Part shown: one piece after another, positions 5,997 through 31,861 of the stretch
How the letters are laid out: each line of letters begins with the position of its first letter
Numbering within the stretch: position 1 is the stretch's first letter
Assembly: GCA_964638425.1 (NCBI GenBank)
Contig: CAZWYM010000001.1
Location: 74,441 to 138,440, forward strand
Reading direction: 5' to 3'
DNA from: an uncultured Candidatus Saccharibacteria bacterium
GTDB taxonomy: Bacteria > Patescibacteriota > Minisyncoccia > Phycocordibacterales > UBA918
Length of the DNA: 64,000 nucleotides
The notes under the pieces: generated by a model
Database searches by the model: none
The model's input: only the letters and a program-made list of their open reading frames with translations
Told to the model about the DNA's origin: nothing
Translations under genes and position numbers: made by a program

Positions 5997-6015
5997 ACTA
6001 CGCCACTCGTGTGTA

Positions 6016-7086: not shown

Positions 7087-7192
7087 ATTGCTACCAATAT
7101 ATCAGTTTTTTTGATTTTTTACCATATATTGAGGTGGGTATGTTACTTTCACCTATGTAAGGCTATCAAGACCAACTCTTTGCACTTTAAAG

Positions 7193-7245
7193 ACTACCAA
7201 ATGGTTGCTCCGTGGATTCCCTTGAGGTACTGCTCGTAGCGAGCA
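7193..7245. repeat. direct repeat, the authentic 3' end of the 7194..7748 CDS; right boundary of the fic cassette
   Basis: Matches 5943..5996. Confidence 0.7.
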
Positions 7246-7748: not shown

Positions 7749-7993
7749 ACTGTAATTATAGAATATGAAAAGTCCCCTTCATGCATGCTGTGGGAATAAG
7801 GTTAGGTTGGTGAGAGTCGAGCTACGGTATATTTGAACCAGAGTGTCATCTTCTACATACCGAGTTCCATACCACGACAACGCTCCACGGTATGGCGGTC
7901 GTAGAGGTCGATGTAGTACTGCTTGTCTTTGAGGTGGGTTATCACCTCAATATTTTATTCCTCTTTTAAGATATTTCCAGTTGCTGAAAATAT

Positions 7994-8563: not shown

Positions 8564-8565
8564 AA

Positions 8566-11781: not shown

Positions 11782-11796
11782 AATTAAATTTCGAAC

Positions 11797-14700
11797 TCAG
11801 ATATTTACCGTATACACGCTAGTCTTATTATCAACATAACTGTCGTAAACATGCGAATAGACCTTCTGAGTTTTATCTTCACAGTCTTCTTCTGTATAGG
11901 TAGGCTCAGGCAAGTTGTCATACAAAAGAGCGCGGATAGTGACCTTAACATCAGCACGAGTCTCTTCCTTTTTCTTCCAGTCGAGCGCAAGTTTCTCCAT
12001 ACGAAGCTTTATTACCAACTCCTTCGCAACCACTTTCACTTGATTTACTTCGTCTGGATTGAGGTTCTCTTTTTTGAGCAAGTCAAAAATAGCCAGCTCT
12101 TCCTCAGATAGGTTCTCTGCAATTGCACGACTATCTTCCTCGCTTAGATCCTTAGCGAGCTCTACGAGCTGGTCAAAGAACGACTCAAGATCATGCGAAC
12201 CAGCGTTGTATTCATGCAACAGTCGATTGAGGCGATCAAGGAATGCCTTGCGTAGCTTATTCTTTCGAACCATCTCTTTTATCTTCTCTTCCAATTCAGC
12301 ACTTAATTCCTCAGCTTCAATATTCTTCGTGTCTGAGTCATCAAAAAACTTCTTGAGTGCTTCAAAGTCTATCTTGCTTAGGTCTTTTAGGTTTGGTTTA
12401 TCTTTAATGACGTACTCACCGGCACGGATAGAACGGTCGAGCAGATCCTCAAGATCCTTCTTAACCTGAGACACGTCAGTCTCCTCGTCGATAACTTCAC
12501 GGATACGGGAAGCAATAACCTTATACGCAGTCACCTCGTGGTAGAAGTCTTCTGCCTTTGGTTCTGGGAGAACAGCTTTGTAGTATTTGAGTGCATCACC
12601 TGAAAGTTCGAGGTAGCGTTGCTTAGTTTGTTCATCGACAAGGATGCGGTTGGTAAATACGTCGACGAGACGGATCTTTTCAATATCCTTTGCTTCGAGT
12701 AAATCATTGATATTGAGGTCGAGCAACTTGAGGAATTGTCGAGTCTGAGAAACACTTGCAAAGAGGATTTCTACTAGCTCATCCTTATCTTTAATAATCT
12801 CGTCATCACCATCATTCGAGACAGCATAAATAGCGAGTGCTTTCTGGAGGTTTCGGAACACACCAATGTAGTCAACGATAAGACCGTTAGTCTTTCCCGG
12901 ATACACACGGTTTGCACGAGCGATAGTCTGCATGAGCGTATGGTTCTTGAGTGGCTTATCAAGATAGAGCGTTGAAAGGTTTGGCACGTCAAAACCAGTC
13001 ATCCACATAGCACATACGAAGACAATCTTGAGGTTATCGGTAGGCTCTTTGAATTTAGTTTCCAAGTCCTCGTCAATCATACGAGCACGGATCGGACGCA
13101 TATCGATGTCAAACTCCTTCATGTCATCAATTTCGTTCTGGCTTTGACTGACCACTACCGCCATATCAATGTCCTCGTATTTAGATATCTGCTCACGAAT
13201 AGACTCCTTTTCGTGTTCGTCTTTTGCTTTTGAGACAGCAATATTAAGCTTTGCAATGTACCGTTGCATTTGTTCTTTTACCTTCACGTACATGCGAATA
13301 GCTGTCTTCTTATCAATAGACACGACCATCGCTTTACCGTTGTATCCCCGTGAGGTAAAGTGCGTCACAATATCTTCCGCAACCTTATTGAGACGATCTT
13401 CACGAGAGATGAGGTGGTAGAAAGTTGAAAACTCCTGCTCAAGTTTATCCTCCTCATCAGAGGTAAGGTCGTAGTAATCCATTACCTTCTCAATATCCTT
13501 CTGGATATCAGTATTAGTATTCTGAAGTTTTGGAACACGGTTCTCATAGAAGAGCGGTACTGTCGCACCGTCCTCTACAGACTGTGCAAAATTGTATGTT
13601 GAAACATAGTCTCCAAAGGTTGAGCGGGTCTTTTCTTCACCATCCATAATTGGCGTACCAGTAAAGCCAATGAATGAAGCGTTCGGAAGTGCAATACGAA
13701 GGTTTTTTGCAAAAGTATCGTATTGGGTACGATGCGCTTCGTCAGCCATTACAATAATGTCATTTCGTAGATTGAGTTCAATGGGTTCGTTGAACTTCTG
13801 AATCAAAGTGAAGATATGGCGATGATCCTCAGCAAGTAGTTCTCGGAGATTTTGAACAGAATCTGCATGCACTTCTTTATCTTTCTCAGCTCCACAGTCA
13901 ACAAAGTTCTTGTATATCTGTTTATCAAGCTCACGACGGTCAGTAATCAGCACAAAAGTGAAGTTACCATGCATCTTTCTGAATACCTTCTGCGACAAGA
14001 AGAGCATTGAGTATGATTTTCCTGATCCTTGTGTGTGCCAGAACACCCCAAGACGACCTCCATTTTCTTCACGATGTTCAATACGCTGAAAAGCTTTATT
14101 GACCCCGAGGAACTGGAAGTATCGAGCAACAATTTTGGTGAGTTCGCCACGAGAGCCATCAAATAATGTGAAGTTCTCAACAATATCTAAAAGTCGTGAC
14201 GGCTCACACGTACCACGAAGTACAATGTCGAGACTTACGCCACCCTCTTCACTCTCGTCATTAATCTTCTTCCATTCATTAAAGTGCTCATAGGCAGAAG
14301 TAAGGGTACCCACCTTACTCTCAATACCATTTGAAATAATGATAAATGCGTTACACCAAAAAAGCTGAGGAATGGTGTCCTTATAGTCACGAATATTTTC
14401 TTGGTAGGCATTGCGGAGATTCTTGTGCGAAGCTTTCAATTCAATGAGCACTAACGGCAACCCATTTACAAAACCTATAAGATCAGGGCGACGCTTGTGG
14501 AGTTCGCCAGTGATCCACATTTGAGATACGAGAAGGTAGTCGTTTTTTGAGACATCATTAAAATCAACAACTTTGATATTGATGGTCTCTATCGCTCCAC
14601 GATCGTCACGGACCTCAACTTTGACACCATCTTTTATGAGTTTATAGATATCAGCATTCGCATTTACCAAACTCATTGATGAACGGTCACGAGTAAGCTC

Positions 14701-14922
14701 ATCAATAGCTTGAATAATGGCTTCTATTGGAGCATCAGGGTTAAGTCTCTCGAGAGAGGGCTTTAGGTACTTCGCCAAAATAACCTGCCCTTGATTATCA
14801 CGACCTAGGAGTGCGTCACCCTCATCAGAGTATCCATTAATAAAATTTTTAACACCCCAAAGTTCGCCAAAGATTTTGACAGCTGTTTGCTCTATGAGGT
14901 TGTCTTCTGAAAATTCGTTCAT
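11797..14922 (-). CDS. hsdR: type I restriction enzyme R subunit (HsdR)
   Basis: SF2 helicase motifs WHTQGSGKS and DEAHR; size 1041 aa; overlaps hsdS by 4 nt. Confidence 0.9.
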   Translation of the reverse strand: MNEFSEDNLIEQTAVKIFGELWGVKNFINGYSDEGDALLGRDNQGQVILAKYLKPSLERLNPDAPIEAIIQAIDELTRDRSSMSLVNANADIYKLIKDGVKVEVRDDRGAIETINIKVVDFNDVSKNDYLLVSQMWITGELHKRRPDLIGFVNGLPLVLIELKASHKNLRNAYQENIRDYKDTIPQLFWCNAFIIISNGIESKVGTLTSAYEHFNEWKKINDESEEGGVSLDIVLRGTCEPSRLLDIVENFTLFDGSRGELTKIVARYFQFLGVNKAFQRIEHREENGGRLGVFWHTQGSGKSYSMLFLSQKVFRKMHGNFTFVLITDRRELDKQIYKNFVDCGAEKDKEVHADSVQNLRELLAEDHRHIFTLIQKFNEPIELNLRNDIIVMADEAHRTQYDTFAKNLRIALPNASFIGFTGTPIMDGEEKTRSTFGDYVSTYNFAQSVEDGATVPLFYENRVPKLQNTNTDIQKDIEKVMDYYDLTSDEEDKLEQEFSTFYHLISREDRLNKVAEDIVTHFTSRGYNGKAMVVSIDKKTAIRMYVKVKEQMQRYIAKLNIAVSKAKDEHEKESIREQISKYEDIDMAVVVSQSQNEIDDMKEFDIDMRPIRARMIDEDLETKFKEPTDNLKIVFVCAMWMTGFDVPNLSTLYLDKPLKNHTLMQTIARANRVYPGKTNGLIVDYIGVFRNLQKALAIYAVSNDGDDEIIKDKDELVEILFASVSQTRQFLKLLDLNINDLLEAKDIEKIRLVDVFTNRILVDEQTKQRYLELSGDALKYYKAVLPEPKAEDFYHEVTAYKVIASRIREVIDEETDVSQVKKDLEDLLDRSIRAGEYVIKDKPNLKDLSKIDFEALKKFFDDSDTKNIEAEELSAELEEKIKEMVRKNKLRKAFLDRLNRLLHEYNAGSHDLESFFDQLVELAKDLSEEDSRAIAENLSEEELAIFDLLKKENLNPDEVNQVKVVAKELVIKLRMEKLALDWKKKEETRADVKVTIRALLYDNLPEPTYTEEDCEDKTQKVYSHVYDSYVDNKTSVYTVNI

Positions 14923-16100
14923 GATTTTATTTCTAATTTACCGGTGACCAACTGTGGAAGAATCAAGTCACGTGACTTGATCAGTATTTCGTTCTGTTTC
15001 TCAAGTTTATACTTTAAAACAATACATTCTCGCACCTCTCTACCAAATTTATCTGTAACTTCAACTGGCGGAACATTCAATTTCTTTGTCATAAATTCAG
15101 GCCAGTGTCCTTTGTAGTCGTTGAATGAGATTAAGTTTTTTGTTGCAAAATGCAACCAAAATACATTCCTATCATCTAATGGGAGAAAAGGTAAAACATT
15201 TTGTATTGCAGAAAATGCAAACATTATTAAATTTTGATAACAAGTATGATTCGCAAATACAATTATTGGATCGTCTGTCGAAGCTACAACACTCGGCTCA
15301 TCATTATGATAGCCAATTATCCCTGACCTACCTTGATCTAAAACTGGCACTTTACCTGTAGGTTTAACAGTTTTATTTTCGTATCTCCTGCCAGCTGAGA
15401 CTCTTTTAATCACATCTTCTACTCTCTTTACTTCCCAGCCATCAGGAAGACCATCATTCCCAAATCTTATTTTTTCAGACCCAGGAAAACGAAAATTTAC
15501 AAACCATTCAGTATAAATTTTTTGAGCTAGTGTCTCAAGAATGTAGATGCGACGTTTGTTGTTTTCAATTAAATCATCAAAAAGGGACAAAGTTGAAGCA
15601 ATTGCTTTTTGAGTCTTCAATGGAAGATAATCAACATTGAGATTTTCTAGTTCACTCCCTCTGATTCCAGCTGCAGCTACCTGCATCACCAGTGATTGGG
15701 TTTTAGCTTTTCCTCTAGGAGATGAAAAGTAATAGTAGAAGAAATCAGGGTTTGCAATATCTTTTTTTAATCGCACTCTTATAAGGTGCGACTCGAAGGT
15801 TGTCTGACGTGTTGTCCCTTTAAAAATTGAACATTTACCAGCGCCTTCTGCCACTAATGACTGTCTTGCAAAAAGTAGATCGCCATCCATAAGTAGACTG
15901 TTCGCTTGCTCCTTTAACGTTAACGGGGCAAGCTCCATCCCAATAGAATCGTATATCTTGTCATACTTAAAAATCTCACCCATATTCACCATAGGAAAAC
16001 CTGAGCCTCTTACTCTCTTCGGCTTACTCACGCCATTACGAGAGGGGATTTCGTAAAGATCACCGAATCGTATTTCTTTTGTTTCTTGATTGATCTGCAT
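14919..16100 (-). CDS. hsdS: type I RM specificity subunit (HsdS), two target-recognition domains
   Basis: Position between hsdM and hsdR; two-TRD architecture with conserved central and C-terminal helices. Confidence 0.8.
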   Translation of the reverse strand: MQINQETKEIRFGDLYEIPSRNGVSKPKRVRGSGFPMVNMGEIFKYDKIYDSIGMELAPLTLKEQANSLLMDGDLLFARQSLVAEGAGKCSIFKGTTRQTTFESHLIRVRLKKDIANPDFFYYYFSSPRGKAKTQSLVMQVAAAGIRGSELENLNVDYLPLKTQKAIASTLSLFDDLIENNKRRIYILETLAQKIYTEWFVNFRFPGSEKIRFGNDGLPDGWEVKRVEDVIKRVSAGRRYENKTVKPTGKVPVLDQGRSGIIGYHNDEPSVVASTDDPIIVFANHTCYQNLIMFAFSAIQNVLPFLPLDDRNVFWLHFATKNLISFNDYKGHWPEFMTKKLNVPPVEVTDKFGREVRECIVLKYKLEKQNEILIKSRDLILPQLVTGKLEIKS

Positions 16101-16104
16101 ATTA

Positions 16105-17640
16105 CTATTCTAATCCCAAGAGATTTCGAAAATTATTCAAAATACTCTTTTCAAGAGAACGTGCCTCAACAGTAAGTTTTTCAAACTCGGTGTAAAGCTC
16201 TCTTGCAGACGTTTCAAAATCCTCATCTGAAATATCCGATTCGACAGTTCCTACATATCGACCTGGATTTAGAGAGTAACCAGTATCGGCTACTTCTTGG
16301 ATTGTAACGACCTTACAAAACCCCTTTACGTCTTCATATTTAGCTAAAGTTTGCTCGCCACGATACCTTCGTACAACGTCAGTAATCTGCTGTATTTGTT
16401 CATCAGTCCATTCACGATGTGAACGATCGACTTGGGTGAAGGTATTTCGTGCATCAATGAAAAGAATTTTGTCTTTACGCTCAAGATACCTCTTACCTTT
16501 GTCGAGAAACCAGAGAGTTACAGGAAGAGTAACGTTATAAAACATGTTTGGACCAACAGAGACCATCACATCAACAACATTGTCATCAACAAGCTTCTTA
16601 CGAATTTCTTTTTCACTATTTCCAGCATCACTGGCAGAGTTTGCCATAACAAAACCTGCACGACCTCCATCTTTGAGAGCGTTCAGGAATATTTGTATCC
16701 AGAGATAGTTACCGTTATCTGTACGTGGGAGACCGTATGAAAATCGGGGATCATCTTTGATACGTTCTTTATCAATACCATCTACATTGAATGGTGGATT
16801 TGCCATTGCAAAATCAAACTTTCCGACAGAGCGGTGTAGATCTTCGTAGTAAGTGTTTCCCTGACGTATATCTCCAGAAAGACCATGAATAGCGAGGTTC
16901 ATCTTAGCAATACGAACTGTCTGATCAGTCTTTTCTTGCCCATAAATAGAAATCTCTCGTGAGGCTTTTTCTTTTTTTCCATTTTCAAGATGACGCTTAA
17001 TGAACTCAAGGGACTGCACAAACATACCTCCTGAACCACAAGCAGGATCGTATATCTTTCCTTGATAGGGTTCAAGAATTTCTACGATCAACTTTACAAT
17101 CGATGTCGGAGTAAAGAACTCTCCACCACCCGAACCGTCTGACAGCGCGAACTTGCCGAGAAAGTATTCGTAAATAAGACCGAATGCATCGCCTTCAATT
17201 GTGTCGGGGATATGATTTAGATTTTTGAGAAGCGTAACAATTGCAGAATTGTCGAGCAGGTTGTAATTTTTCGGAAGAATGCCTGCGAGGTCTTTGTTTG
17301 ATGTTTCAATTTCCTTCATTGCATCATTAACTGCCTTTCCCATATCCGTTCCTTCTGGAAGTGCAATGAGATACGAAAAACGAGCGTGCTCAGGAACGAA
17401 AAGCACAGCTCGTGATTGATAGTCCTCAGGAGTGATAGGTCTCTGACGTTTAGAAGTAGACGTCTTTGTCTCAGCTTCAATTTCTTTCTGTGCAACAGTG
17501 AATTTTACGTCAGCGAACTTGAGAAAAATAAGACCTAGAACTGGCTCAGCAAACTCGTTGAGACGCAAAGAAGAGTTGGCTCGAAGATGATCTGCCGCCT
17601 CCCATAGTTTACTCTCAAGTTGTTTGATGTCTGATGCCAT
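16105..17640 (-). CDS. hsdM: type I RM N6-adenine DNA methyltransferase (HsdM)
   Basis: HsdM N-terminal domain, SAM motif, and catalytic NPPF (ANPPFNVDG). Confidence 0.9.
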   Translation of the reverse strand: MASDIKQLESKLWEAADHLRANSSLRLNEFAEPVLGLIFLKFADVKFTVAQKEIEAETKTSTSKRQRPITPEDYQSRAVLFVPEHARFSYLIALPEGTDMGKAVNDAMKEIETSNKDLAGILPKNYNLLDNSAIVTLLKNLNHIPDTIEGDAFGLIYEYFLGKFALSDGSGGGEFFTPTSIVKLIVEILEPYQGKIYDPACGSGGMFVQSLEFIKRHLENGKKEKASREISIYGQEKTDQTVRIAKMNLAIHGLSGDIRQGNTYYEDLHRSVGKFDFAMANPPFNVDGIDKERIKDDPRFSYGLPRTDNGNYLWIQIFLNALKDGGRAGFVMANSASDAGNSEKEIRKKLVDDNVVDVMVSVGPNMFYNVTLPVTLWFLDKGKRYLERKDKILFIDARNTFTQVDRSHREWTDEQIQQITDVVRRYRGEQTLAKYEDVKGFCKVVTIQEVADTGYSLNPGRYVGTVESDISDEDFETSARELYTEFEKLTVEARSLEKSILNNFRNLLGLE

Positions 17641-21045: not shown

Positions 21046-21694
21046 ATCCTTAAATGATAGCAGATCTGTGTTTAAAAGTGAGTTGCGTTTCTCCAGAGCG
21101 CTGCCAGACTTGGAATCTCTCTCATTACATGAGCAGTACACCTTGTCGATATTTTGTTTCCTTACATCACAAAATATCTGGCAAGGTCTTCGAGGTCAGG
21201 GACTCGTCCCGCTTTTTCTAGTTCACTTCGTTCACAAGAACGCTGGACGCGGCTCGCTGTTTCGTCGCAAGCTCCTCATATCGCTCCGCCGTTCGAGTCC
21301 CTGACTGGCTAGCAACGACAAAGGCCACAGACGTATTCACGTTTGTGGCCTGTCGATTGCTGCCAGTCAGGGACTCGAAGCTTACAGCTTCAGTTCAGGT
21401 TGTATGATATTTTCTTTCAGAAAATCTCGACAACCTCCTTAAAAGTCTCCCAGACTTTTAAGCCCCAATAAAATGCGAATGAGGCGTGTCCTAGAGCCGA
21501 ATGAGTGAGTGTGAAAGAAAATGTGTTGAGTTTCCACAGAGCGCTGGCCGTCTCGGGCTAGAACCGTAGGTGACCAAGCCCAGCTTGACGGAATCAGCTC
21601 ATTTTACACTACCTTACCGACGCGTCTCGTGCATCTCAAAAAGTGACAAAAGTGACACGGAACAGCCTGTAATAGTTACAGTCATCTGTAACTA

Positions 21695-22243
21695 TTAGTA
21701 CATACAAAGACCCGAAATAATTGGCGTTAGTACTCTATAAATACAAATAAGGTAGAACAAAACAAAGAGAATATATGCAATTATGGTCAATCTGCTTTCC
21801 CATGATGAGCCACCTTTCTCAAACCGCTTCCTATGCTCTTTGTATGCCTCCTGAAATTTTGTAATGAAATCGTAGGAGATAAAGACGAGTCCTGTACCCC
21901 ACAAGAACGTGAGGGCTTGGAGTCCTTCAGGTGTTTGGCTTTGGAGATCACAATATGTCTGTGCCATAAAAATGAGCACACCAAATCCAACGCTTGCATG
22001 TAGTAAGGCTTTGTATACTGCATAGCCAGATACAAGCATGATGACAGTGAGGACAAATCCAATGGAAGAAACAGCGACAATAGAAAGACCAGAAAGAAGT
22101 TGGTGATTGAAGTAGTTGTTGTCAGCAAATATCAGAGCAGTAAAAAGAACCGCAAAGATGAGCGGTACTAATTTCTCCTTATTAAACCCAAGTTTCATAA
22201 GTCCAACTATACGCCCACAATACGAGTCTGCAACTATACCCAT
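21695..22243 (-). CDS. 5-TM membrane protein; paralogue of 7994..8563; last gene of the LexA-TIR-caspase operon
   Basis: Overlaps the upstream gene by 10 nt; shares conserved blocks with 7994..8563. Confidence 0.5.
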   Translation of the reverse strand: MGIVADSYCGRIVGLMKLGFNKEKLVPLIFAVLFTALIFADNNYFNHQLLSGLSIVAVSSIGFVLTVIMLVSGYAVYKALLHASVGFGVLIFMAQTYCDLQSQTPEGLQALTFLWGTGLVFISYDFITKFQEAYKEHRKRFEKGGSSWESRLTIIAYILFVLFYLICIYRVLTPIISGLCMY

Positions 22244-22932
22244 TCTTCGGCCCGAGCATATTCAATCCTTGTTTTTGCGCCATCGAGTATCTTGTCATCG
22301 AGGGAGACTAGCGGTGGTTTCCCTCTCGCTGAGTACTCCAAGGTCTTGAATAGGTACCCCAGAAACGATCCTGTGTATCTACAGCACCGAATGCAACATC
22401 GTATTTTGTCGGGCACCTCGTCCTCATATCCTTTCCAACGATACATTTGTGGGTAACGATCTATCCAGTCGTCAGTAATGAATGTCACCCACTTTATAAG
22501 TTCCTCTTGAGCGCAGACGTTACCCCTTTGACCCAATCGCACCAAACGAATCACCATGCGATCTTGAATGTGTTTGTCGCGGTCATCTGCTGGCGAAAGA
22601 AAAACATACAATTTCTCTTTATATCTCTCAAGGATCAAGTCAACTTCTGTCTGACGTCGGTACGGTCGTGCCTGTTTATATCGATAGCGAATCCATCTTT
22701 TTTGATACTCACGGGAAATGTGACGAGTTAAAGAGTCCCAATCAATACTATTGTTTTCGTTACGTAAGTTCTGTCGTGCATATTGGTACACAGGTTTTGC
22801 ATGTATAAAAATCCACGAGCTAGTGAGTGCCGGTGGTTGCTTCTCGTCAAGAGCCTGATTAAGTAATGCAATAGCGGTACAAAAATCCATAAGTGCCCAT
22901 TTGGGACACTTATATTTTACCTTCTGAAACAA
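22234..22932 (-). CDS. hypothetical protein with CCxRCC cysteine cluster
   Basis: 232-aa ORF overlapping the caspase-like gene by 23 nt; contains DKIRCCIRCCRYTG; no recognised fold. Confidence 0.45.
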   Translation of the reverse strand: MFQKVKYKCPKWALMDFCTAIALLNQALDEKQPPALTSSWIFIHAKPVYQYARQNLRNENNSIDWDSLTRHISREYQKRWIRYRYKQARPYRRQTEVDLILERYKEKLYVFLSPADDRDKHIQDRMVIRLVRLGQRGNVCAQEELIKWVTFITDDWIDRYPQMYRWKGYEDEVPDKIRCCIRCCRYTGSFLGYLFKTLEYSARGKPPLVSLDDKILDGAKTRIEYARAEEWV

Positions 22933-23857
22933 GTCTCCAATAGTGGTATCCGAGAGCCGTTAACTTACAGGATTTTGAGTTTTGAGCTGCGTAATACATG
23001 TGTTCTTCCCCGACAGGGACAACTAGTCCAATGCTCACAAATTTCTGTAAATTTTTAAGGACAGCAACCTTTTCAGGTATGGCAATATCTTTATTATCAA
23101 ACTCATACGTAGGGTCTAATGCGTATTCTTGTTCAGGCGTTGGAAAATACTCTGTTATTTTTCTAAGCGTCTCTGTAGGAACAGGAGGATTTATAGTTCT
23201 CAATGAAGTGAATCTAGTTACATTAGTCTTAAAGACTGGACGTTGATCCCAAGGACCAAGCGCTTGATCAATGTAAGCATAAACACTTCCAGGAGTTATA
23301 TGACCCCTTAAGTCGGCGGCACCTCCTTGCAATGCATCAATAAGCAAACTAGTAAAAATTCCATGACCATTAATCTCCAAAGCAACTTCGCTATCACGAC
23401 TGGCAGTTAGAACAACTACACCTTCAATAATTTGAGTTGTCGGTGCGGTAGTTCCTGTAGTGACAGGTGAACCAAATGAACCTGAATGACAACAGTCAAG
23501 AATGATTATCTTGTCCTTTGATTTAGATTGGTTTGCAATAGTAAGAATTTGATCCATCGAAACACCCTCATCATTTAGTTTGTAATCTGGGGTTACTAAG
23601 TAACCACCAAGAGTGTTCAGGTACCCATGACCTGAAAAATATAAGAGGGCAATATCGCTATCGCCAGCAAAAAGCTCTTTAATCGCCGTCATAAGATCAG
23701 ATTTTGTTGGAACATCAGTCTCAAGTCTGACATCGAAGTTAGGTGATCCATCACCATTCTTGCTGATAGTATTTGCAAAAGCTGAAGCGTCATTAATGCA
23801 CCCTGTTAGAGGCGATTGTGGGTAGTTATTAATCCCAACTACAAGCGCTTTTCTCAT
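22910..23857 (-). CDS. caspase-like peptidase C14 (metacaspase/orthocaspase-like) with a C-terminal domain of unknown function
   Basis: KALVVGINNY...L.GCINDA start; catalytic His in YFSGHG; catalytic Cys in IILDCCHSG. Confidence 0.8.
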   Translation of the reverse strand: MRKALVVGINNYPQSPLTGCINDASAFANTISKNGDGSPNFDVRLETDVPTKSDLMTAIKELFAGDSDIALLYFSGHGYLNTLGGYLVTPDYKLNDEGVSMDQILTIANQSKSKDKIIILDCCHSGSFGSPVTTGTTAPTTQIIEGVVVLTASRDSEVALEINGHGIFTSLLIDALQGGAADLRGHITPGSVYAYIDQALGPWDQRPVFKTNVTRFTSLRTINPPVPTETLRKITEYFPTPEQEYALDPTYEFDNKDIAIPEKVAVLKNLQKFVSIGLVVPVGEEHMYYAAQNSKSCKLTALGYHYWRLVSEGKI

Positions 23858-23858
23858 A

Positions 23859-24230
23859 CTACAGTTTGTTGATGAATGACTTTATATTGTCCCAATTCCA
23901 AACATTAACAAGACGACCATTCAAAGAAGATGGAAGCATAGGTCTATCTGAACCTGTATACATAAGCATTACTGGTACTTTTTCTTCGTTCGCAGTCTTA
24001 ATTTCATACAATTCACCAGTCGCCCGTGGTGTGTTGTTACTGATAAGCGCAATCATTCCGTCACAACCCTTAATTTTTGTTCGACATTTAGACTCCCAAT
24101 CTGTTTCCCACGGTGTTTTTACGGACATATCTACAAACTCAAATGGTGAGTTGTCATTTTTTGCTTGACCTACAAGAAAGTCACGGAACTTTTTGTCTTC
24201 AACAGCGAATGCAATAAATATTCTTTTCAT
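23859..24230 (-). CDS. TIR-like domain protein (DUF1863/MTH538-like)
   Basis: RIFIAFAVEDKKF...MIALISNNTPRATGELYEIKTANEEKVPVMLMY follows the DUF1863 TIR-like pattern. Confidence 0.6.
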   Translation of the reverse strand: MKRIFIAFAVEDKKFRDFLVGQAKNDNSPFEFVDMSVKTPWETDWESKCRTKIKGCDGMIALISNNTPRATGELYEIKTANEEKVPVMLMYTGSDRPMLPSSLNGRLVNVWNWDNIKSFINKL

Positions 24231-24251
24231 AATATGTTGTGGTTAAATCAA

Positions 24252-24491
24252 TTAATGTTTTGTATCTTTCGGTGGGTTTGGGTCCTTGCCGTAACTATCC
24301 TTGTCGGTAATCGTTCCGTCTCTTTTATGTATCACATGCTCAACTTGTCTAGACCTCGCCTCTTTTATTGATTTATCAATGGCCGTTTCTTTGGTATGAG
24401 AACTTACGACCGGTTTCGATTGATTTTCGACTTTGGTTTCCCACATACTTCTATCCTTATTGTATACGGTATGAATATTTCTTTTGGTCAT
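24252..24491 (-). CDS. DUF2188 family small protein
   Basis: ...VIHKRDGTITDKDSYGKDPNPPKDTKH C-terminus is characteristic. The track ORF extends to 24548; the Met at 24491 is preferred. Confidence 0.6.
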   Translation of the reverse strand: MTKRNIHTVYNKDRSMWETKVENQSKPVVSSHTKETAIDKSIKEARSRQVEHVIHKRDGTITDKDSYGKDPNPPKDTKH

Positions 24492-24496
24492 AATAT

Positions 24497-25114
24497 TTAA
24501 TACAGATCTGATGGAAGTATCGCAACAACAACTCCTTGGATCTGACAATTATCGGTTAATATGATTGGTCTATACGTTTTATTGGATGATTTTGGTCTTA
24601 GGATCACCGCACCATCAGCTCTTTCAAAGTATTTGAGAGTTGTCTCATCATTGATGAGGGCAACAACTTTATCTCCAGTCTCTGCTGACTCTTGCTGTCG
24701 AATGAGTAGAAGGTCACCACTATTGATACCAGCAAGATTCATCGAGTCGCCCATAGCACGCAAAAGAAAATAAGTAGAACCACTTCTCGCCATCTCAGTT
24801 GAGACTGGAATGTAGTCTAAAATATTTTCCTCGGCTAGCATTGGAGTACCACACGTCACTGCACCTACTAGGGGTACGTCAATCGTGTTAACTGAATTAT
24901 TGAGCCTCGGGGATGTTAAGACGAGACTTCGCCCGCTTCGCTTCACAAGTCCTGCTTTTTCTAAGCGATCAATTACTAGACTGGCTGATCGGGGTGATTT
25001 ACCGCCAGTAACCTCATTGATCTCCTGTAGGGTAGGGCTTTTGCCATACGTAGTAATCTTGTTGCGGATAAGTCCAAGGGCTTTCTTGTCTTTGTCACTG
25101 AGATTATTTATCAT
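24497..25114 (-). CDS. lexA: LexA repressor (wHTH + S24 peptidase)
   Basis: N-terminus ALGLIRNKITTYGKSPTLQEINEVTG...PRSASLVIDRLEKAGLV is LexA-like. S24 Ser-Lys dyad (GDSM, TTLKYF). Confidence 0.8.
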   Translation of the reverse strand: MINNLSDKDKKALGLIRNKITTYGKSPTLQEINEVTGGKSPRSASLVIDRLEKAGLVKRSGRSLVLTSPRLNNSVNTIDVPLVGAVTCGTPMLAEENILDYIPVSTEMARSGSTYFLLRAMGDSMNLAGINSGDLLLIRQQESAETGDKVVALINDETTLKYFERADGAVILRPKSSNKTYRPIILTDNCQIQGVVVAILPSDLY

Positions 25115-25174
25115 GGTATAAATAGTATAACAAATGCTATACAATCCAGCAAACAGTGCTAAAATTAGGATACT

Positions 25175-25843
25175 ATGAGTAATGAATCAGAGAAAGAATA
25201 CAAAGTACAGATACCTGAGAGTCTACTCTCTTTCACGCAGTTTCCTGATCTCTCTGCTATTCAAAAGTCACTTAAGCCAATTTTTGAACAACGTGAGACT
25301 TTTCTAAATTTAGCTAAAAGTATGAAGCCAATTGCAGATATGGCTGTACAACTCCAGAAGCGGTACAAGCAACATAATTCTCTTACACGTGAAATGGTTA
25401 TTCCGTATCACCGACCTGTTGAGTACAAAATTTTGGATGAGCTGAGAAGCATCAATGAAAACCAACAAGAGATAACCAAAAATCAGCAAGCTATACTTGA
25501 TCTCCGTGAAGATGGTGTCGATTGTATCATTTATGATGTGGGGGATGGATCACTCTCACATGTGCTGGGTGGGAGTAATTTTTCGTACGACATGACGAGT
25601 GATGGAAAACGAAAGCAAATGTTTGAGATACTGTTTCGGACTAGGAAGTATGTAAATACAAATGACTTAAAGGAGTCATTGGGGTGTCCGTCAACACAAG
25701 CGGTGGCAAAGATTGTACAGACGTTTAATGCCTACGCGAGTGACATGCTTCGGCTTAACGGTGAAAAACTTATTCAAGGGAGGAAAGGTTCTGGCTATCG
25801 AATTAATCCGAAAATAAGAGTTGAGAGCAGTCGAAATTATTAG
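25175..25843 (+). CDS. hypothetical protein; first gene divergent from lexA
   Basis: 222-aa ORF with its own downstream terminator. Confidence 0.45.
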   Translation: MSNESEKEYKVQIPESLLSFTQFPDLSAIQKSLKPIFEQRETFLNLAKSMKPIADMAVQLQKRYKQHNSLTREMVIPYHRPVEYKILDELRSINENQQEITKNQQAILDLREDGVDCIIYDVGDGSLSHVLGGSNFSYDMTSDGKRKQMFEILFRTRKYVNTNDLKESLGCPSTQAVAKIVQTFNAYASDMLRLNGEKLIQGRKGSGYRINPKIRVESSRNY

Positions 25844-25872
25844 GTGGACATCAAGGTGAGTGGATAATACAG

Positions 25873-25905
25873 AAAACAGCCTTTTAAAATAAGGCTGTTT
25901 TCATT
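25873..25905 (+). terminator. rho-independent terminator
   Basis: aaaacagcctt ttaaaataa ggctgtttt followed by a T-run. Confidence 0.6.
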
Positions 25906-25931
25906 TATCGACTCCATCTGGTGTCTATTAC

Positions 25932-27269
25932 GTGACTAGGTATCTATTTGCTTTGATAGAGCCATATCAACATAAGCAAGTAGTTATGAAGAAACTAATT
26001 TGGCATACCGCACAGAAACGAGTGAACGATCTTGTTCCGCAAGAAATTAATCCCCGCAAGATCACTGACGTACAGATGAAGGCTCTAACTGTGAGTCTGA
26101 GGAAATTTAATCTAGTGGAAATACCAGCTATTGATGCTGACGGTACTATCCTCGCTGGACACCAGCGTATCAAGGCACTCCAGCTCTTGGGTCGAGGAGA
26201 AGAGTTAATTGACGTACGAGTACCAAACCGCAAACTCACTAAAAAGGAGTCAAAGCAGTATCTCATCGGCTCAAACAAGCTTGGTGGCTATTGGGACTAT
26301 GATCTTCTCAAGGCGTTCGATATGGACACTTTGTCTTTTGCTGGCTTTGAGTCAATGGAACTAGCGAAGTTTTGGGATGAGGACAACGCTACCAAGGATG
26401 ATGACTTCAATGTAGAGAAGGAGCTAAAGAAGATTGTTATCCCAAAGACTAAGCTCGGCGATATTATCCATCTCGGACGGCATAAGCTCATTTGTGGTGA
26501 CTCCACAAAACCTGAAACTCTTGCACGACTCTTTGGTAATGAACGAGCGTCGATGATTTATTCAGATCCAGTGTACAACATAAAAATTAATTACGACGGT
26601 GGTATTGGTGGCAAAAAAGATTATGGTGGCAATGTCAATGATTCTCGTACCTTTGAGGAATACAAGACATTCATCAAAGATAGCTTGAGTTCCGCACTAG
26701 CAGTCTCAGACCCGAATACTCACGTCTTCTACTACTGCGATCAAATCTATATAGGACTGATTCAGGAGGTATACCGATCACTAGGTATTGCCAATAAGCG
26801 AGTGTGTTTGTGGCTTAAAAATTCTCAAAATCCTGTCCCGAAAGTATTTTGTAACAAGGCATATGAGCCTGCTGTTTACGGTGTGCGTGGTAAACCTTAT
26901 CTCGCAGGTAGTATTCAGGATTTAAACGAAGTTCTCAATAAAGAGTTTGGAACTGGTAATGAACTAGTTGCACAAGTTGATAGCTTTCTTGAAATATGGA
27001 CTGCCAAACGACTCTCTGCTAAAGACTATCAGCACGCTACGTCTAAACCCATCACACTCCACGAGAAAGCGATTAAACGCTGTACCAAACCAAACGACAT
27101 TATCCTCGATAGCTTCCTTGGTTCTGGTAGTACGCTTCTTGCCGCTGAACAGCTGGGTCGTCGAGTGTATGGCTGTGATCTTGAACCGAGATTTTGCGAT
27201 CTCATCATTAACCGCTTTGAAGCTCTGACTGGCACAAAGGTAACTGTTGAACACTATGAAGAAAAATAA
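25932..27269 (+). CDS. ParB-like nuclease domain fused to N4/N6 DNA methyltransferase (phage-type orphan MTase)
   Basis: ParB/Srx N-terminal domain (LAGHQRIKAL), DPPY-like motif SDPVYN, SAM motif DSFLGSGST. Alternative start at 25986. Confidence 0.8.
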   Translation: MTRYLFALIEPYQHKQVVMKKLIWHTAQKRVNDLVPQEINPRKITDVQMKALTVSLRKFNLVEIPAIDADGTILAGHQRIKALQLLGRGEELIDVRVPNRKLTKKESKQYLIGSNKLGGYWDYDLLKAFDMDTLSFAGFESMELAKFWDEDNATKDDDFNVEKELKKIVIPKTKLGDIIHLGRHKLICGDSTKPETLARLFGNERASMIYSDPVYNIKINYDGGIGGKKDYGGNVNDSRTFEEYKTFIKDSLSSALAVSDPNTHVFYYCDQIYIGLIQEVYRSLGIANKRVCLWLKNSQNPVPKVFCNKAYEPAVYGVRGKPYLAGSIQDLNEVLNKEFGTGNELVAQVDSFLEIWTAKRLSAKDYQHATSKPITLHEKAIKRCTKPNDIILDSFLGSGSTLLAAEQLGRRVYGCDLEPRFCDLIINRFEALTGTKVTVEHYEEK

Positions 27270-27669
27270 ATACCAAGAGCAGTTTCTCCTAGAGCTAGCC
27301 AAAGTACCGATTGTTCAAGTTGCGTGCGAAAAAACAGACTTATCACGCAATACGATATACCGTTGGCGGAAAGAAGACGTTTCGTTTGCTAAGAAAATGG
27401 ATCAAGCACTAGCTGATGGCGTGGCTTTGGTAAATGACATGGGTGAAAGCCAGCTTCTTACCCTGATTAAGGAAAAGAACTTCCCAGCGGTGCGCTTTTG
27501 GCTCAATAAACGTCATCCAGCATACAAAGACAAAATTGAAGTTACGACTAAAGAGGATATTGAAGCACTAACGCCGTCACAGGCAAAGATTGTAAGGCGA
27601 GCTCTTAAGCTCGCTTCAATTACCAAAACCACTTCCATTAAAAAGATAAATACTAAACATCATGAATAA
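27247..27669 (+). CDS. putative terminase small subunit (HTH)
   Basis: Small basic HTH protein immediately upstream of the terminase large subunit, overlapping it by 8 nt. Confidence 0.45.
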   Translation: MNTMKKNKYQEQFLLELAKVPIVQVACEKTDLSRNTIYRWRKEDVSFAKKMDQALADGVALVNDMGESQLLTLIKEKNFPAVRFWLNKRHPAYKDKIEVTTKEDIEALTPSQAKIVRRALKLASITKTTSIKKINTKHHE

Positions 27670-29152
27670 AATTATTCCCAACGCACTGGTGAACAAGATG
27701 CTGAAAGACCGTCTGATCCGTACATCTATCACCAAAGACAGTTTCCTCTACTTCTTCCACTTCTACTACGCCCACTACGTGAAGTACGAAACGGCAGACT
27801 TCCAAAAAGAAATTATTCACCATCTTGAAAGTAGTCCTACTGAGAACTTCTACGTTGTCGCTTTTCGTGGATCAGGTAAATCCACAATGGTTACCACCGC
27901 CTATCCAATATGGGCAATCCTCGGTAAACAACAAAAGAAGTTCTGCATTATCTTCTGTCAGACACGGGCACAGGCGAAGCAACACATGATGAACATCCGC
28001 ACTGAGCTTGAGGGAAACGATCTGCTTAAAAAAGATCTTGGTCCGTTCCAAGAAGAGAGTGATGAATGGGGTTCGCATTCACTAGTATTCAGAAAACATG
28101 GTGCTCGGATTACGGTTGCTTCGAGCGATCAGAGTATTCGTGGACTCCGCCATAACGAACACCGACCCGACCTTATCATTTGTGACGACGTTGAGGATGT
28201 ACAATCTACCAAGACTCGCGAAGGTCGGGAGAAAACCTATAACTGGCTTCGAGGTGAAGTAATTCCATCAGGTGATAAAAAGACTCGGCTAATTATTGTT
28301 GGAAACCTTCTCCATGAAGATTCTCTTCTCATGCGTATTAAAGAGGAGATTGGAAAAGGAAAAGCCAAGGGAGTATTCAAGGAGTACCCGCTTCTCGATA
28401 AAAATGATGTCTGTCTTTGGACTGGGAAATACATGGACGTAAAAGATATCGAGGACGAGAAGCTCAAAGTTGCGAGTGATATCTCGTGGCAACGTGAGTA
28501 TCTCCTTCGAATTATTCCAGCAGAAGATCAGGTTATCTATCATGATTGGATACAGTACTACGATGAACTTCCTCCAGTGAGTCATCGTGCTTTTCGTGGT
28601 CGGTATGCAGCCGTTGACTTGGCTATATCTGAAAAAGATTCAGCAGACTATACCGCTCTTGTGTCGGCGCACATTTATGGACGACGAGAGAAGTTGCGCA
28701 TATACATTCTCCCCAATCCAATAAATAAGCGACTCAATTTTCCAGCACAAGTCGATTTGCTAAAAGACTACAAACTTACCTATATGCCGAGTAGCTATGA
28801 TCTTATGTTTGTAGAGAGTGTTGCGTATCAAGAAGCACTTCCGCAGATGCTTGAGCTACACGGGATTGACGCTGAAGCCATAAAGCCAAAAGGTGATAAG
28901 CGAACACGATTATCGCTCACTTCGACTTCAATAAAGGCAGGTGTCATTAAGTTTCCTCGGCAGGGATGCGAGCGCTTGATAGAACAATTGGTTGGATTTG
29001 GAGTCGAAAAACACGACGATCTGGCAGATGCGTTTTCACTGCTCGTAAATGCTACACTTAAAAAACATATGGACGAATCTACGTGGTTAATGGCAAGTAT
29101 GGAGAGTACTCTTTTCTACAGTGACTATATTGATGTTGAAACAGGTAAATAA
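27662..29152 (+). CDS. phage terminase large subunit
   Basis: Walker A AFRGSGKST; ATPase plus C-terminal RNaseH-like nuclease layout with acidic residues (DDLADAF). Confidence 0.8.
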   Translation: MNKIIPNALVNKMLKDRLIRTSITKDSFLYFFHFYYAHYVKYETADFQKEIIHHLESSPTENFYVVAFRGSGKSTMVTTAYPIWAILGKQQKKFCIIFCQTRAQAKQHMMNIRTELEGNDLLKKDLGPFQEESDEWGSHSLVFRKHGARITVASSDQSIRGLRHNEHRPDLIICDDVEDVQSTKTREGREKTYNWLRGEVIPSGDKKTRLIIVGNLLHEDSLLMRIKEEIGKGKAKGVFKEYPLLDKNDVCLWTGKYMDVKDIEDEKLKVASDISWQREYLLRIIPAEDQVIYHDWIQYYDELPPVSHRAFRGRYAAVDLAISEKDSADYTALVSAHIYGRREKLRIYILPNPINKRLNFPAQVDLLKDYKLTYMPSSYDLMFVESVAYQEALPQMLELHGIDAEAIKPKGDKRTRLSLTSTSIKAGVIKFPRQGCERLIEQLVGFGVEKHDDLADAFSLLVNATLKKHMDESTWLMASMESTLFYSDYIDVETGK

Positions 29153-29157
29153 CGTGG

Positions 29158-30192
29158 TTACTCACACTGCGGACTCTTTGTTCGTTGGTATGAAGCAAGG
29201 AGTTCCTCAAGTGAGTTAAAGGATTTAAGATTTGAAGCACTGAGACTTTTCCAGCCATCACAATCTTCAGGATAGTAGTATTTCGCACTGTAATGTGAGG
29301 AAGTGTAGTATTTCGTTCCAGAAGTATTTGATACTGGAACGGCTGTATTTGTCTGTGTGTCCGTCTCAACCGCTGTTCCCGTAAGCGGATCACCGTCACA
29401 TGTATTCGATGACCATAATCCTTTTTCGGAGCTACGTGCACTTTCTTGTGCCGATTTAAATTCTGCCTGATATTTATACGCTACGTTGTATGTGTACTCA
29501 TACGCATATCCTTCTGTAATCATGTGTTTGTTGAAGAAAAGTCCATCATCTCGAAATACATACACAAGGAGTCGTCCATATTTATCACGAGTATCTTGCG
29601 TGGAGTCAGATTCAATACGCACACTCTTTCCTAAAAGGAGCTGTTTTGCCATGTTAGATGCTTCTTTTCCAAAACACTGCACGGGCTTTCGTGGATCAAC
29701 TGTTTCAGGCGTATCAATACCAATGAGTCGGAGTGTTTCAATGACTCCGTCTTTACGAATTTTAATAGTATCTCCATCAACGACATCAGTAATTGAATAA
29801 GTATCACCGTTTGTAACGGGTTGTTCTGTTGGAGTAATTTGAGAGGTGTTGTCGCCAGTTTGAACATTTGTATTTAAAACAGCTGGTGAGTCGGTACTTT
29901 CCAATACTTGTTCTTGCTGTGTTTCTCCCTCACTTAAAATGGATTCTGATTCAGTTACTTGCGTCTCAATGATTTTGTTCTCGCTCAATTCTCTCGGTTG
30001 TGTCGGTTCACCAAAAATATTTCCTATGAGACCGATTATAAAAAGAGTAATAAGTGCCAAATATATTGGATGTCGTTTCATCCATCGTATATACGATTTC
30101 TCTGCACCTGAGGTGCTTTGTGTTTGATCTGTATTCATAATGTGCTTGATAGGACTTAAATTTAAAGTAGCGAGATACAAAAAGCCCGCCAC
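29158..30192 (-). CDS. thermonuclease (SNase-like) family protein, membrane anchored
   Basis: DGDTIKI...RLIGIDTPE...GRLLVYVF...NKHMITEGYA matches SNase motifs. Confidence 0.75.
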   Translation of the reverse strand: MAGFLYLATLNLSPIKHIMNTDQTQSTSGAEKSYIRWMKRHPIYLALITLFIIGLIGNIFGEPTQPRELSENKIIETQVTESESILSEGETQQEQVLESTDSPAVLNTNVQTGDNTSQITPTEQPVTNGDTYSITDVVDGDTIKIRKDGVIETLRLIGIDTPETVDPRKPVQCFGKEASNMAKQLLLGKSVRIESDSTQDTRDKYGRLLVYVFRDDGLFFNKHMITEGYAYEYTYNVAYKYQAEFKSAQESARSSEKGLWSSNTCDGDPLTGTAVETDTQTNTAVPVSNTSGTKYYTSSHYSAKYYYPEDCDGWKSLSASNLKSFNSLEELLASYQRTKSPQCE

Positions 30193-30280
30193 GGGTAGAG
30201 GGCGAACCCTCTCGTACCAGTTTCCCGATACGGCCTATCAAGCAACCCCATGACGGGTTTTTTATGCTTGATAGGACTTT
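30144..30280. repeat. 15-bp direct repeat tgcttgataggactt (30144-30158 and 30266-30280) with an inverted copy at 30233-30246, in the nuclease/recombinase divergent region
   Basis: Seen directly. Confidence 0.5.
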
Positions 30281-30476
30281 TCGCCATGCCTCGGATAACT
30301 CTGAGGTTTAGGCTACTTCTATATATTCTGTTGTTGCACAATGATAACAGATTTTGCTACCGATTTACACCTTAACGCACAGATGCTGTTTTGTTAAGAG
30401 TATGACGCGAGTATGCGTCGTTTATCTAGTTCTGCATAGACTATGCACCACTGATGGTTCTGTCATTAATGGTCGT

Positions 30477-31826
30477 ATGGAAACACAAGTGATTAACAAT
30501 TTCGGTGTTAAGACGGAAGTACCGGCCACACCAGTTCGCTACGTCTTGTATGCGAGAAAAAGTACCGAAGATTCCAGCGAGAAACAAGCACTTTCAATCG
30601 ACTCTCAAGTCAAGGAAATGCTCGCAATTGCAGAGCGTGAGGGGTTAGACATAATTGATATACGGCGCGAAGCACACTCCGCAAAAGACTCCGGGCAACG
30701 ACCAGTCTTTAATGAGATTTTAAGAGATATAAAATCAGGAAGATACAACGGAGTGGCAACGTGGAGTCCGGATCGCCTAAGTCGTTGTGGGGGTGACTTA
30801 GGTTCACTTGTTGATCTTATGGATGAGAAACATTTAATTCAAATCAGGACATATGGACAGACATTCACCAATACTCCAAGTGAAAAGTTTTTACTGATGA
30901 TCCTGTGTAGCCAAGCTAAATTAGAAAATGACCAAAAAAGTATCAACGTGAAGCGAGGACTTAAGACCAGAGTAGAAATGGGATTGTGGCCTGCACCGGC
31001 ACCAACGGGGTATATCAAAGAGAAACGGATGGACAGAAAGTGCGAGACTTTGATAGATCCAGACAGAGGTCATATTATTAAGCAAGTATTTGATAAAGTC
31101 GCATACGAAAAATGGAGTGGTCGAAAAGTATATAACTGGCTAAAATTTGATTTGAACTTTAAAACAGCTGGAGGGAACAAAAATCTTTCGTTGAGCAATA
31201 TATTTGTAATACTTCAAAATCATTTCTATTACGGTGTATTTGAATATCCAAAAAAAAGTGGCAACTGGTACAAAGGAAAACATGAACCGCTTATATCAAA
31301 AGAACTCTTTGATGCAGTCCAGATGCAAGTAAAGAGTCAGTTTGTCCGATCTGAGAATAAAGAGTTTGCATTCACCAAGCTCATGACATGCGGACTCTGT
31401 GGTTCAGGTATCTGTGCTGATGAGAAGTTCAAGAAACAGAAAAATGGGAATGTGCATCGACACGTATATTACGGGTGCACCAAATCAAAAGACAAAAACT
31501 GCAGGTGTGGCTATATCAACGAAATTGATCTTCTCAAACAATTTGAAGAGCTGATGGATAAAATTGATATAGATGAGATAGGTATCAAACAAAAATTGAA
31601 AGAAGAAGTGGAACGATTCAAAAAGTTCCAGAGAGTACTACTAGGAAAACCAACTCAAGTGACCGTTGAGGAGGTTGATATACGAAATTATGCAAAATAT
31701 TTACTCAGGGAAGGTAAGGATGTAGAGAAGAGAGAATTGCTAGGATGCATAAATAATACAATATATTTAGCAAGTAAAATAATAACTCTACAGATGAGTA
31801 AAAATTGCTTTATTATTGAAGAATGA
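30477..31826 (+). CDS. large serine recombinase (resolvase/invertase catalytic domain + recombinase domain + zinc ribbon)
   Basis: YVLYARKSTEDSS...LSIDSQ catalytic region; ATWSPDRLSR; C-terminal CGLCGS...YYGC zinc ribbon. ORF opens at 30354; Met at 30477 chosen. Confidence 0.8.
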   Translation: METQVINNFGVKTEVPATPVRYVLYARKSTEDSSEKQALSIDSQVKEMLAIAEREGLDIIDIRREAHSAKDSGQRPVFNEILRDIKSGRYNGVATWSPDRLSRCGGDLGSLVDLMDEKHLIQIRTYGQTFTNTPSEKFLLMILCSQAKLENDQKSINVKRGLKTRVEMGLWPAPAPTGYIKEKRMDRKCETLIDPDRGHIIKQVFDKVAYEKWSGRKVYNWLKFDLNFKTAGGNKNLSLSNIFVILQNHFYYGVFEYPKKSGNWYKGKHEPLISKELFDAVQMQVKSQFVRSENKEFAFTKLMTCGLCGSGICADEKFKKQKNGNVHRHVYYGCTKSKDKNCRCGYINEIDLLKQFEELMDKIDIDEIGIKQKLKEEVERFKKFQRVLLGKPTQVTVEEVDIRNYAKYLLREGKDVEKRELLGCINNTIYLASKIITLQMSKNCFIIEE

Positions 31827-31861
31827 ACTCAATCAAAGCAAACATGTTGGAAATGATTGAC

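Follow-up and report, generated by a model that had tools for sequence, protein, structure and literature searches.

We analysed a cluster of six genes on the minus strand (21695-25114) of a 64,000-nucleotide (nt) stretch of DNA from an uncultured Candidatus Saccharibacteria bacterium (contig CAZWYM010000001.1, positions 74,441 to 138,440), referred to below as the window. The cluster encodes, in order, a LexA-type repressor, a DUF2188 protein, a TIR-domain protein, a caspase-like protease, a protein first called as 232 amino acids (aa) long and a membrane protein. As described below, the TIR and caspase genes very probably form a type IV Thoeris defence system carried by a small integrative element. 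All six open reading frames (ORFs) are found where an original prediction, made from the letters of the DNA, had placed them, and its calls of LexA, of DUF2188 and of a C14 caspase (YFSGHG and DCCHSG supplying His77 and Cys123) agree with the profile scores in Table 1. The genes are indeed close together on one strand, but two of the spacings differ from those described: 21 nt separate the DUF2188 gene from the TIR gene, and the 23-nt overlap of the 232-aa ORF with the caspase gene becomes a gap of 19 nt after the caspase stop once the start is moved to Met15 (22890), as the lengths and N-termini of homologues indicate. We refer to the resulting 218-aa protein as P232 and to the membrane protein as TM5.

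The call of a TIR-like protein was borderline in Pfam (ThsB_TIR 6.9e-4, TIR_2 2.3e-3) and was then backed by homology and by fold. In a BLASTP comparison with the validated PsTIR, translated from Table S2 (cloned sequences) of 10.1101/2024.10.24.620036, 48 of 123 residues were identical (39%), with 66% positives over 122 of the 123 residues (E 1e-32). Glu76 of the window protein aligns with the catalytic E79 of PsTIR, and is invariant across 51 TIR homologues, 29 of which match PF08937 (ThsB_TIR). An AlphaFold2 (AF2) model of the protein (pLDDT 87) had a Bacillus cereus TIR structure, 8fz9, as its best match in the PDB (E 1.8e-7, TM 0.78), with further matches to EcThsB2, MyD88, SARM1 and SPARTA TIR domains. 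A sequence search of the PDB with the same protein gave chance matches and one weak ThsB match only.

The caspase-like protein matches phrog_18397 over its full length (residues 1-313, 2e-88), and both His77 and Cys123 are invariant in 71 aligned caspases. Residues 201-315 average 62% identity among 70 homologues, as compared with 57% for the protease domain. The N-terminus, MRKALVVGI, is the same as the first nine residues of PsCaspase. The closest relatives, with 75-83% identity, all come from metagenome-assembled genomes of Saccharibacteria, Paceibacteria or the 'Patescibacteria group'. Full-length identity of 44-45% was seen to proteins of a Salmonella integrative and conjugative element (ICE) and of a fecal 'phage' contig (L003; comparison contigs and loci are given by such numbers throughout), each of them preceded by a TIR gene. 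The TIR beside the Salmonella homologue is 77% identical to the validated EcTIR. A related pair is carried by 24 E. coli genomes, in 8 of which it is 99% identical to that of Salmonella; RefSeq labels the E. coli proteins 'TIR domain-containing protein' and 'caspase family protein'. A sequence search of the PDB with the caspase found no match. Two other assignments of the protease were tried and rejected: an EACC1-associated caspase (NF047832), as the score was 110.6 bits against a curated cutoff of 140 and there was no EACC1 partner, and a gasdermin-type system, as the genes on either side code for a TIR protein and a sigma-2-like all-alpha protein, and Pfam and PADLOC gave no gasdermin match. 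We also noted, directly upstream of the TIR-caspase pair in a Salmonella houtenae ICE (L002, 6235-7580), genes for a membrane protein (184 aa) and for a 262-aa protein bearing a nucleotide-cyclase-like GDGILAFF motif, which, read by eye, may be a Pycsar-like pair.

A ThsB TIR protein together with a caspase-like protease makes up type IV Thoeris, described for the systems of Pseudomonas sp. 1-7 and E. coli 328 (Rousset et al., bioRxiv 10.1101/2024.10.24.620036, Science 2025). In infected cells the TIR produces N7-cADPR, which switches on a promiscuous protease with specificity for arginine; defence requires PsTIR E79 and PsCaspase C129, and the two genes suffice for it (10.1101/2024.10.24.620036). 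The caspase-like effector was later named ThsE (10.64898/2025.12.03.692087). In the window the two genes are separated by 1 nt. Among 70 genomic loci with a complete caspase gene and upstream sequence, 63, from many phyla, carry an adjacent, co-directional TIR ORF within 700 nt. Six Nomurabacteria/Parcubacteria genomes are already in the published census of type IV Thoeris (10.1101/2024.10.24.620036). The TIR-caspase core is a further copy of this system in a lineage where it is already listed; the earlier view of the locus was right in kind, as a defence locus, and wrong in taking the system to be undescribed.

The pair lies within a phage-derived integrative element of about 10 kb (about 21,530-31,860; Table 1). 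The arm divergent from the six genes encodes a ParB-methyltransferase fusion protein, small and large terminase subunits (TerS and TerL) and, at the right edge, a large serine recombinase. The backbone order is repeated in Patescibacteria contigs L005-L009, L013, L082, L087-L089, L094 and others, in differing host contexts, and the ParB-methyltransferase is 40-92% identical among these sister elements. This recurrence bears out the suggestion in the original prediction that the defence genes are cargo of an adjacent phage-like element. In the data examined the family is confined to Patescibacteria, where it spans Saccharibacteria, Paceibacteria, Nomurabacteria and other groups. Host genes begin at 31862 on the right, with a flank encoding PAP2 and a P-type ATPase, and are also found left of about 21,140; the left border is probably near 21,530, because similarity to the sister elements stops there. 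The element lacks capsid, portal and tail genes, and so is a satellite-like entity or, at the least, something short of a whole phage; no recognisable replication gene was found in it either.

Table 1. Features of the element that carries the TIR and caspase genes, in window coordinates.
Feature	Coordinates	Strand	Evidence
Conserved non-coding end block beyond the final gene of the leftward arm	21533..21693	.	blastn and alignment of 12 element copies
TM5 family backbone membrane protein, 182 aa, or 167 aa from Met16 (22198)	21695..22243	-	
P232 family backbone protein, 218 aa from Met15; predicted all-alpha, C-terminal half like sigma-factor region 2	22234..22890	-	
Terminator-like hairpin, 11-bp stem and T-rich tail, between the caspase stop and the 218-aa start	22888..22914	-	
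Putative ThsE, caspase-like effector protease, 315 aa; C14 domain (His77/Cys123) and C-terminal domain (about 200-315)	22910..23857	-	Peptidase_C14 3.4e-22
Putative ThsB of type IV Thoeris: TIR-domain protein of 123 aa, sensor and signal synthase, Glu76	23859..24230	-	homology to PsTIR, predicted fold
DUF2188 protein, 79 aa, facultative accessory gene after the repressor	24252..24491	-	Pfam 6.5e-12
LexA-type repressor, 205 aa; winged-helix DNA-binding and S24 autoprotease domains	24497..25114	-	Pfam Peptidase_S24 4.6e-28, LexA_DNA_bind 7.6e-07; NCBIfam TIGR00498, lexA equivalog 140.7 bits (cutoff 110.95)
Candidate promoter: TTGCTG (25152-25147), 17 nt, TATACT (25129-25124)	25124..25152	-	consensus match
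Inverted repeat GTATA-N8-TATAC over the -10 hexamer; candidate operator for divergent promoters	25125..25142	.	
First gene of the divergent arm, 222 aa, varies among element copies	25175..25843	+	HTH_11 1.1e-3, below cutoff; no PHROG match
ParB-like N-terminal domain fused to N6/N4 DNA methyltransferase, backbone	25932..27269	+	N6_N4_Mtase 4e-29; phrog_498 2e-81
Small-terminase-like protein (TerS), backbone, conserved in sister elements	27247..27669	+	phrog_4044 4.6e-9
Large terminase subunit (TerL), backbone, conserved in sister elements	27662..29152	+	phrog_38 2e-75
Staphylococcal-nuclease-domain protein, facultative, also in L013 and L086	29158..30192	-	SNase 4.5e-27
LOOT RNA motif, divergent from the recombinase gene	30197..30314	-	Rfam RF03000, 94.8 bits (gathering 46.4)
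Large serine recombinase (integrase), right element edge	30354..31826	+	Resolvase, Recombinase, Zn_ribbon_recom; phrog_95 5e-59

Taken together, the TIR homology, the caspase signatures and the recurring gene order make it very probable that the TIR and caspase genes are a type IV Thoeris system, and that this occupies a slot for cargo in a ~10-kb integrative element of Patescibacteria with terminase genes. Several points weigh against this assignment. The window TIR falls just under the Pfam gathering cutoffs, and the caspase is tied to validated ThsE indirectly, through the TIR neighbour of the Salmonella protein and the nine shared N-terminal residues. For signal identity, trigger and protease specificity alike we depend on homologues with 39-45% identity. 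The proposals of an operator, of leaderless translation and of co-transcription with lexA (see below) are readings of the DNA sequence, and the tight spacing of all six genes leaves room for functional coupling of the flanking genes to Thoeris. As for the element, its borders come from comparison, as no direct or inverted repeats of at least 10 nt are common to both ends; the absence of long direct repeats is expected, because the integrase is a serine recombinase. Its excision and transfer are putative.

By homology to the characterised systems, ThsB would sense phage infection and turn NAD+ into N7-cADPR by means of Glu76. The N7-cADPR would then bind the C-terminal domain of ThsE, whose His77/Cys123 protease would go on to cut many cellular proteins after arginine. 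The infected cell would halt before phage release, that is, undergo abortive infection. The layout of the DNA suggests that the cargo is probably co-transcribed with the repressor gene from an autoregulated, nearly leaderless promoter, which would give basal expression of the cargo in the carrier cell and an increase upon cleavage of the repressor.

It had been proposed that all six genes work as one system, SOS-inducible through LexA, in which the TIR and caspase proteins signal and the membrane protein, activated through the caspase or the 232-aa protein, kills the cell. The tight spacing on one strand fits this proposal, as do an independent 3.4-kb Logan contig with an identical six-gene block and the fact that caspase-activated pore formers, such as bacterial gasdermins, are known elsewhere. 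Gene-neighbourhood data, however, already largely refute it. The TIR-caspase pair occurs in more than 60 loci without the other four genes; the 232-aa protein is encoded in only 2 of 78 genomic caspase loci, and the membrane protein in none of the 78. Conversely, a caspase gene is present in none of 80 loci with the 232-aa protein. The pair of 232-aa and membrane proteins is also seen behind CBASS, behind a ubiquitin-like or another TIR system, and where there is no cargo. In addition, two genes suffice in validated type IV Thoeris, and the model of the 232-aa protein is all-alpha and sigma-2-like rather than gasdermin-like. We therefore give a single six-gene system hardly any chance.

Indeed, TM5 (34 homologues, no family match, and an ambiguous start giving 182 or 167 aa) always directly follows P232, whether the cargo is ubiquitin-like (L087), another TIR system (L088), CBASS (L089, L094) or none (L091). 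The P232-TM5 pair occurs with each cargo type of the sister elements except Shedu, as well as without cargo. In 80 further metagenomic P232 loci neither the caspase nor a TIR of the window type was found, while many of them carry the methyltransferase/terminase/recombinase backbone. Because of these other cargo contexts and their near-absence from caspase loci, P232 and TM5 belong to the backbone of the element and are not parts of Thoeris; the idea that the terminal membrane protein is the Thoeris effector thus did not hold. A hydropathy scan gave TM5 about 4-6 membrane spans, where five had been called before. The CCxRCC cluster reported for the 232-aa protein is present in the window copy but is not conserved, one Cys being invariant among 61 homologues, and we rejected it as a metal site for that reason. 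The hairpin between the caspase and P232 genes (Table 1) was considered as a signal marking the boundary of the module, and dropped, because it is not conserved among sister elements; it is at most a local attenuator.

Neither protein of the pair matched a Pfam family. The best structural matches of the predicted P232 model are sigma-factor region 2 domains. None of the 61 family members had a Pfam sigma match, and a P232 profile search of PDB sequences found no sigma factor. A region 4 was not found, the protein ending about 30 residues beyond its sigma-2-like part. No relatives of P232 were found in phage records (tblastn) or in IMG/VR (alignment scan). It is conceivable that P232 and TM5 are an independent defence or superinfection-exclusion module, so that the locus stacks two or three defence systems: the pair belongs to the arm on the repressor side, which in prophages is home to exclusion genes, TM5 has no recognisable housekeeping role, and defence genes fill the neighbouring slots. 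We consider this unlikely, as nearly all members of the element family have P232, often as the first gene facing the methyltransferase arm, which is the behaviour of backbone rather than of cargo; its predicted structural resemblance to sigma-factor region 2 and the lack of a PADLOC match of note point in the same direction.

The DUF2188 protein matches the PADLOC candidate PDC-S16 (1e-20, profile positions 1-74 of 75), and DUF2188 is on a list of predicted Thoeris effectors (10.64898/2025.12.03.692087). In the sister elements its gene follows S24 repressors where the cargo is type IV Thoeris (L004), another TIR system (L088, L117) or CBASS (L097), and is missing from L006, L007, L009 and L089. 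The locus could thus be a three-gene variant of Thoeris, with DUF2188 as a second effector, or a regulator, answering the TIR signal beside the caspase; the PADLOC and published predictions favour this, as does the TIR gene that adjoins it in the window and in L004, L088 and L117. Nevertheless, the elements with the closest TIR-caspase pairs (L005, L006, L007 and L009) do without DUF2188, and in L097 it precedes a CBASS cyclase gene instead of a TIR gene. In these elements it always comes after an S24 repressor, which fits an accessory gene on the repressor side. A three-gene variant is, in our judgement, quite unlikely, and the two-gene type IV Thoeris remains the preferred assignment.

The LexA-type protein appears, from sequence comparison, to be the autocleavable repressor of the element itself. 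The Cys88-Gly89 cleavage motif (as in UmuD), Ser124 and Lys161 are kept in eight element copies with the same LexA type. Orthologues with 67-91% identity occupy the same position in sister elements, and other elements have an S24 protein of 30-34% identity or an HTH+M78 pair in its place. Both the location inside the element and this swapping with other repressor types lead us to regard LexA as the element's repressor; such swapping is the behaviour of a mobile-element immunity module. Alternatively, LexA could be the SOS regulator of the cell, and the genes downstream a chromosomal, SOS-induced suicide operon beside a prophage remnant. The protein does pass the NCBIfam lexA equivalog cutoff, and the 64-kb window shows no second lexA. 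However, lexA lies within the conserved borders of the element, moves with it into differing host contexts and gives way to the divergent S24 type or the HTH+M78 pair in sister elements, which makes a cellular regulator very improbable. The reading of LexA as the sign of a dedicated SOS-controlled defence regulon, made before, is replaced by that of an element repressor.

Between the end of the candidate repressor promoter and the lexA ATG there are 9 nt, which would leave the mRNA almost without a leader. The inverted repeat covers the -10 hexamer of this promoter and is overlapped by a promoter-like site on the plus strand (25138-25165). The promoter layout and the repeat, with the same spacing, are kept upstream of the same LexA type in L006, L007, L009 and L089. 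This arrangement suggests that the repressor may regulate itself and that the two arms may share an operator.

The position between the repressor gene and the P232 gene is a slot for defence cargo. CBASS genes are found there in several sister elements: a SMODS cyclase with HORMA (L089, 5353-7280, and L094), a nucleotidyltransferase with Cap15 (L092, 2157-4385, and L109), patatin with SMODS-AGS_C (L167, 1738-4061) and, in L097, SMODS after DUF2188. Other slots hold ThsB_TIR-AGS_C with ThsB_TIR (L101, 4225-6086), ThsB_TIR with a 240-aa protein (L088 and L117), the Shedu protein SduA (L109, slot at 3960-8992) or a ubiquitin-like set of Multi_ubiq, E1 and BubE (L087, 6839-8629), and in L091, L082 and L086 the slot is empty. 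Several slot ORFs had no family match (among them L092 3684-4385, L097 2550-3395, L109 6210-7811, L165 2050-3543 and L117 3287-4012), and are candidates for new effectors. In L007 (8946-11042) the caspase gene is followed by a 135-aa ORF, a gene for an 8xMP octameric membrane protein (4e-42) and one for a DUF5677 protein, and then by the conserved end block; this extra cargo differs from that of the window.

The end block is made up of a hairpin (AGTTACAG/CTGTAACT), two tandem copies of TGTCACTTTT (the invariant TGTCACTTTTGTCACTTTTT), then GCACGAGACGCGTCG and another 90 bases or so. At 21617-21658 the tandem TGTCACTTTT-TGTCACTTTT, followed by GCACGAGACGCGTCG, is invariant, and is the same in L005-L008, L012, L013, L023, L082 and L087-L089; the repeat is better conserved than the adjoining coding sequence. 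The tandem-repeat block is probably a binding site for the recombinase, the terminase or the repressor, and the end block as a whole may act as a recombinase, packaging or terminator site. No Rfam family matched the end block, and an Rfam search by E-value of the non-coding region 21100-21800 returned only sub-threshold, hairpin look-alike miRNA matches. Just outside the left border, in a host intergenic region, there is a long, near-perfect hairpin of about 84 nt (21294-21377), maybe the terminator of the upstream host gene or part of the integration target.

At the other end of the element, the LOOT RNA lies 40 nt upstream of the serine recombinase gene. The motif is characteristic of the element family. 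LOOT was found beside the recombinase gene in eight of ten sister elements searched (L005, L006, L007, L013, L082, L089, L094 and L111), and this element family may be the natural context of the motif, to which no function is assigned in the literature searched.

We tentatively propose, while holding it a little less than evenly probable, that the carrier represents a new family of ~10-kb, satellite-like Patescibacteria elements, in which the repressor-proximal slot shuttles signalling-based abortive-infection systems from one ultra-small episymbiotic bacterium to another, the LexA operon ties defence to DNA damage or to induction of the element, and LOOT and the sigma-2-like/membrane pair serve as control parts. 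No description of a carrier element with an exchangeable slot, LOOT and the sigma-2-like/membrane pair was found in the literature searched, coverage of which was incomplete. Within the locus, the carrier and its defence hotspot are more novel than the TIR-caspase core. The genomes of Patescibacteria are tiny and few mobile elements are recognised in them, yet a compact terminase-bearing element swaps whole defence systems at one slot in these genomes, which makes the position between repressor and P232 a place to seek new defence genes in these bacteria. The element could also give the orphan LOOT RNA motif a first genomic setting, and defence genes placed under an SOS-type repressor a case that can be put to the test.

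The window contains other features of interest outside the element. Type I restriction-modification genes and their neighbour occupy 8566-17640 on the minus strand: HsdM (16105-17640), HsdS (14919-16100) and HsdR (11797-14922), followed by a gene for a 1071-aa KAP-family P-loop NTPase (8566-11781, minus strand), which places a host defence island about 4 kb from the element. Type I restriction-modification genes also lie on both sides of the element in L082. In a tRNA-rich region (tRNA genes at 54301-56394) a group I catalytic intron (57611-57805, minus strand, 72.1 bits) is located just upstream of a nucleotidyl-transferase ORF. A 2026 paper (PMC13011429) reports that Patescibacteria have tRNA genes with group I introns that are overlooked by standard tRNA finders, and the intron may mark a split tRNA gene.

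With characterised type IV Thoeris the window pair shares gene order and 1-nt spacing, the His/Cys dyad, an aligned catalytic Glu and the identity to PsTIR given above. It differs in lying within the operon of the repressor of a small integrative element with terminase genes, in its Patescibacteria host, and in being preceded by a DUF2188 gene. EACC1-associated caspases are similar to ThsE in the protease domain (7.3e-32 over residues 3-200), whereas ThsE differs in its C-terminal domain, lacks the EACC1 partner and scores below the curated cutoff. The caspases of gasdermin systems and the CHAT or caspase-like proteases of type III CRISPR systems are likewise clan CD proteases in a death pathway. 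In contrast to these, the window has no gasdermin or CRISPR gene nearby, its neighbouring membrane protein is unrelated to and independent of the caspase, and ThsE would, by homology, be activated by a nucleotide made by the TIR rather than by upstream proteolysis or SAVED domains. P232 recalls T4 gp55, a phage sigma-like protein with region 2 only, by its predicted model, but it has no sequence-level sigma match and carries an extra N-terminal domain of about 100 residues.

The carrier differs from the known hotspots of prophages and satellites (lambda cI-rexAB, P2/P4 and the phage-inducible chromosomal islands, PICI) in its combination of TerL, TerS, ParB-methyltransferase, serine recombinase and LOOT RNA without capsid, portal or tail genes, in having no IMG/VR relatives by the 218-aa marker, and in being restricted to Patescibacteria in our data. 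It shares with them the placement of defence genes at a fixed slot, where they are exchanged among otherwise collinear elements. Lambda rexAB lies with cI, and the slot in the window likewise adjoins the repressor gene and reads in the same direction.

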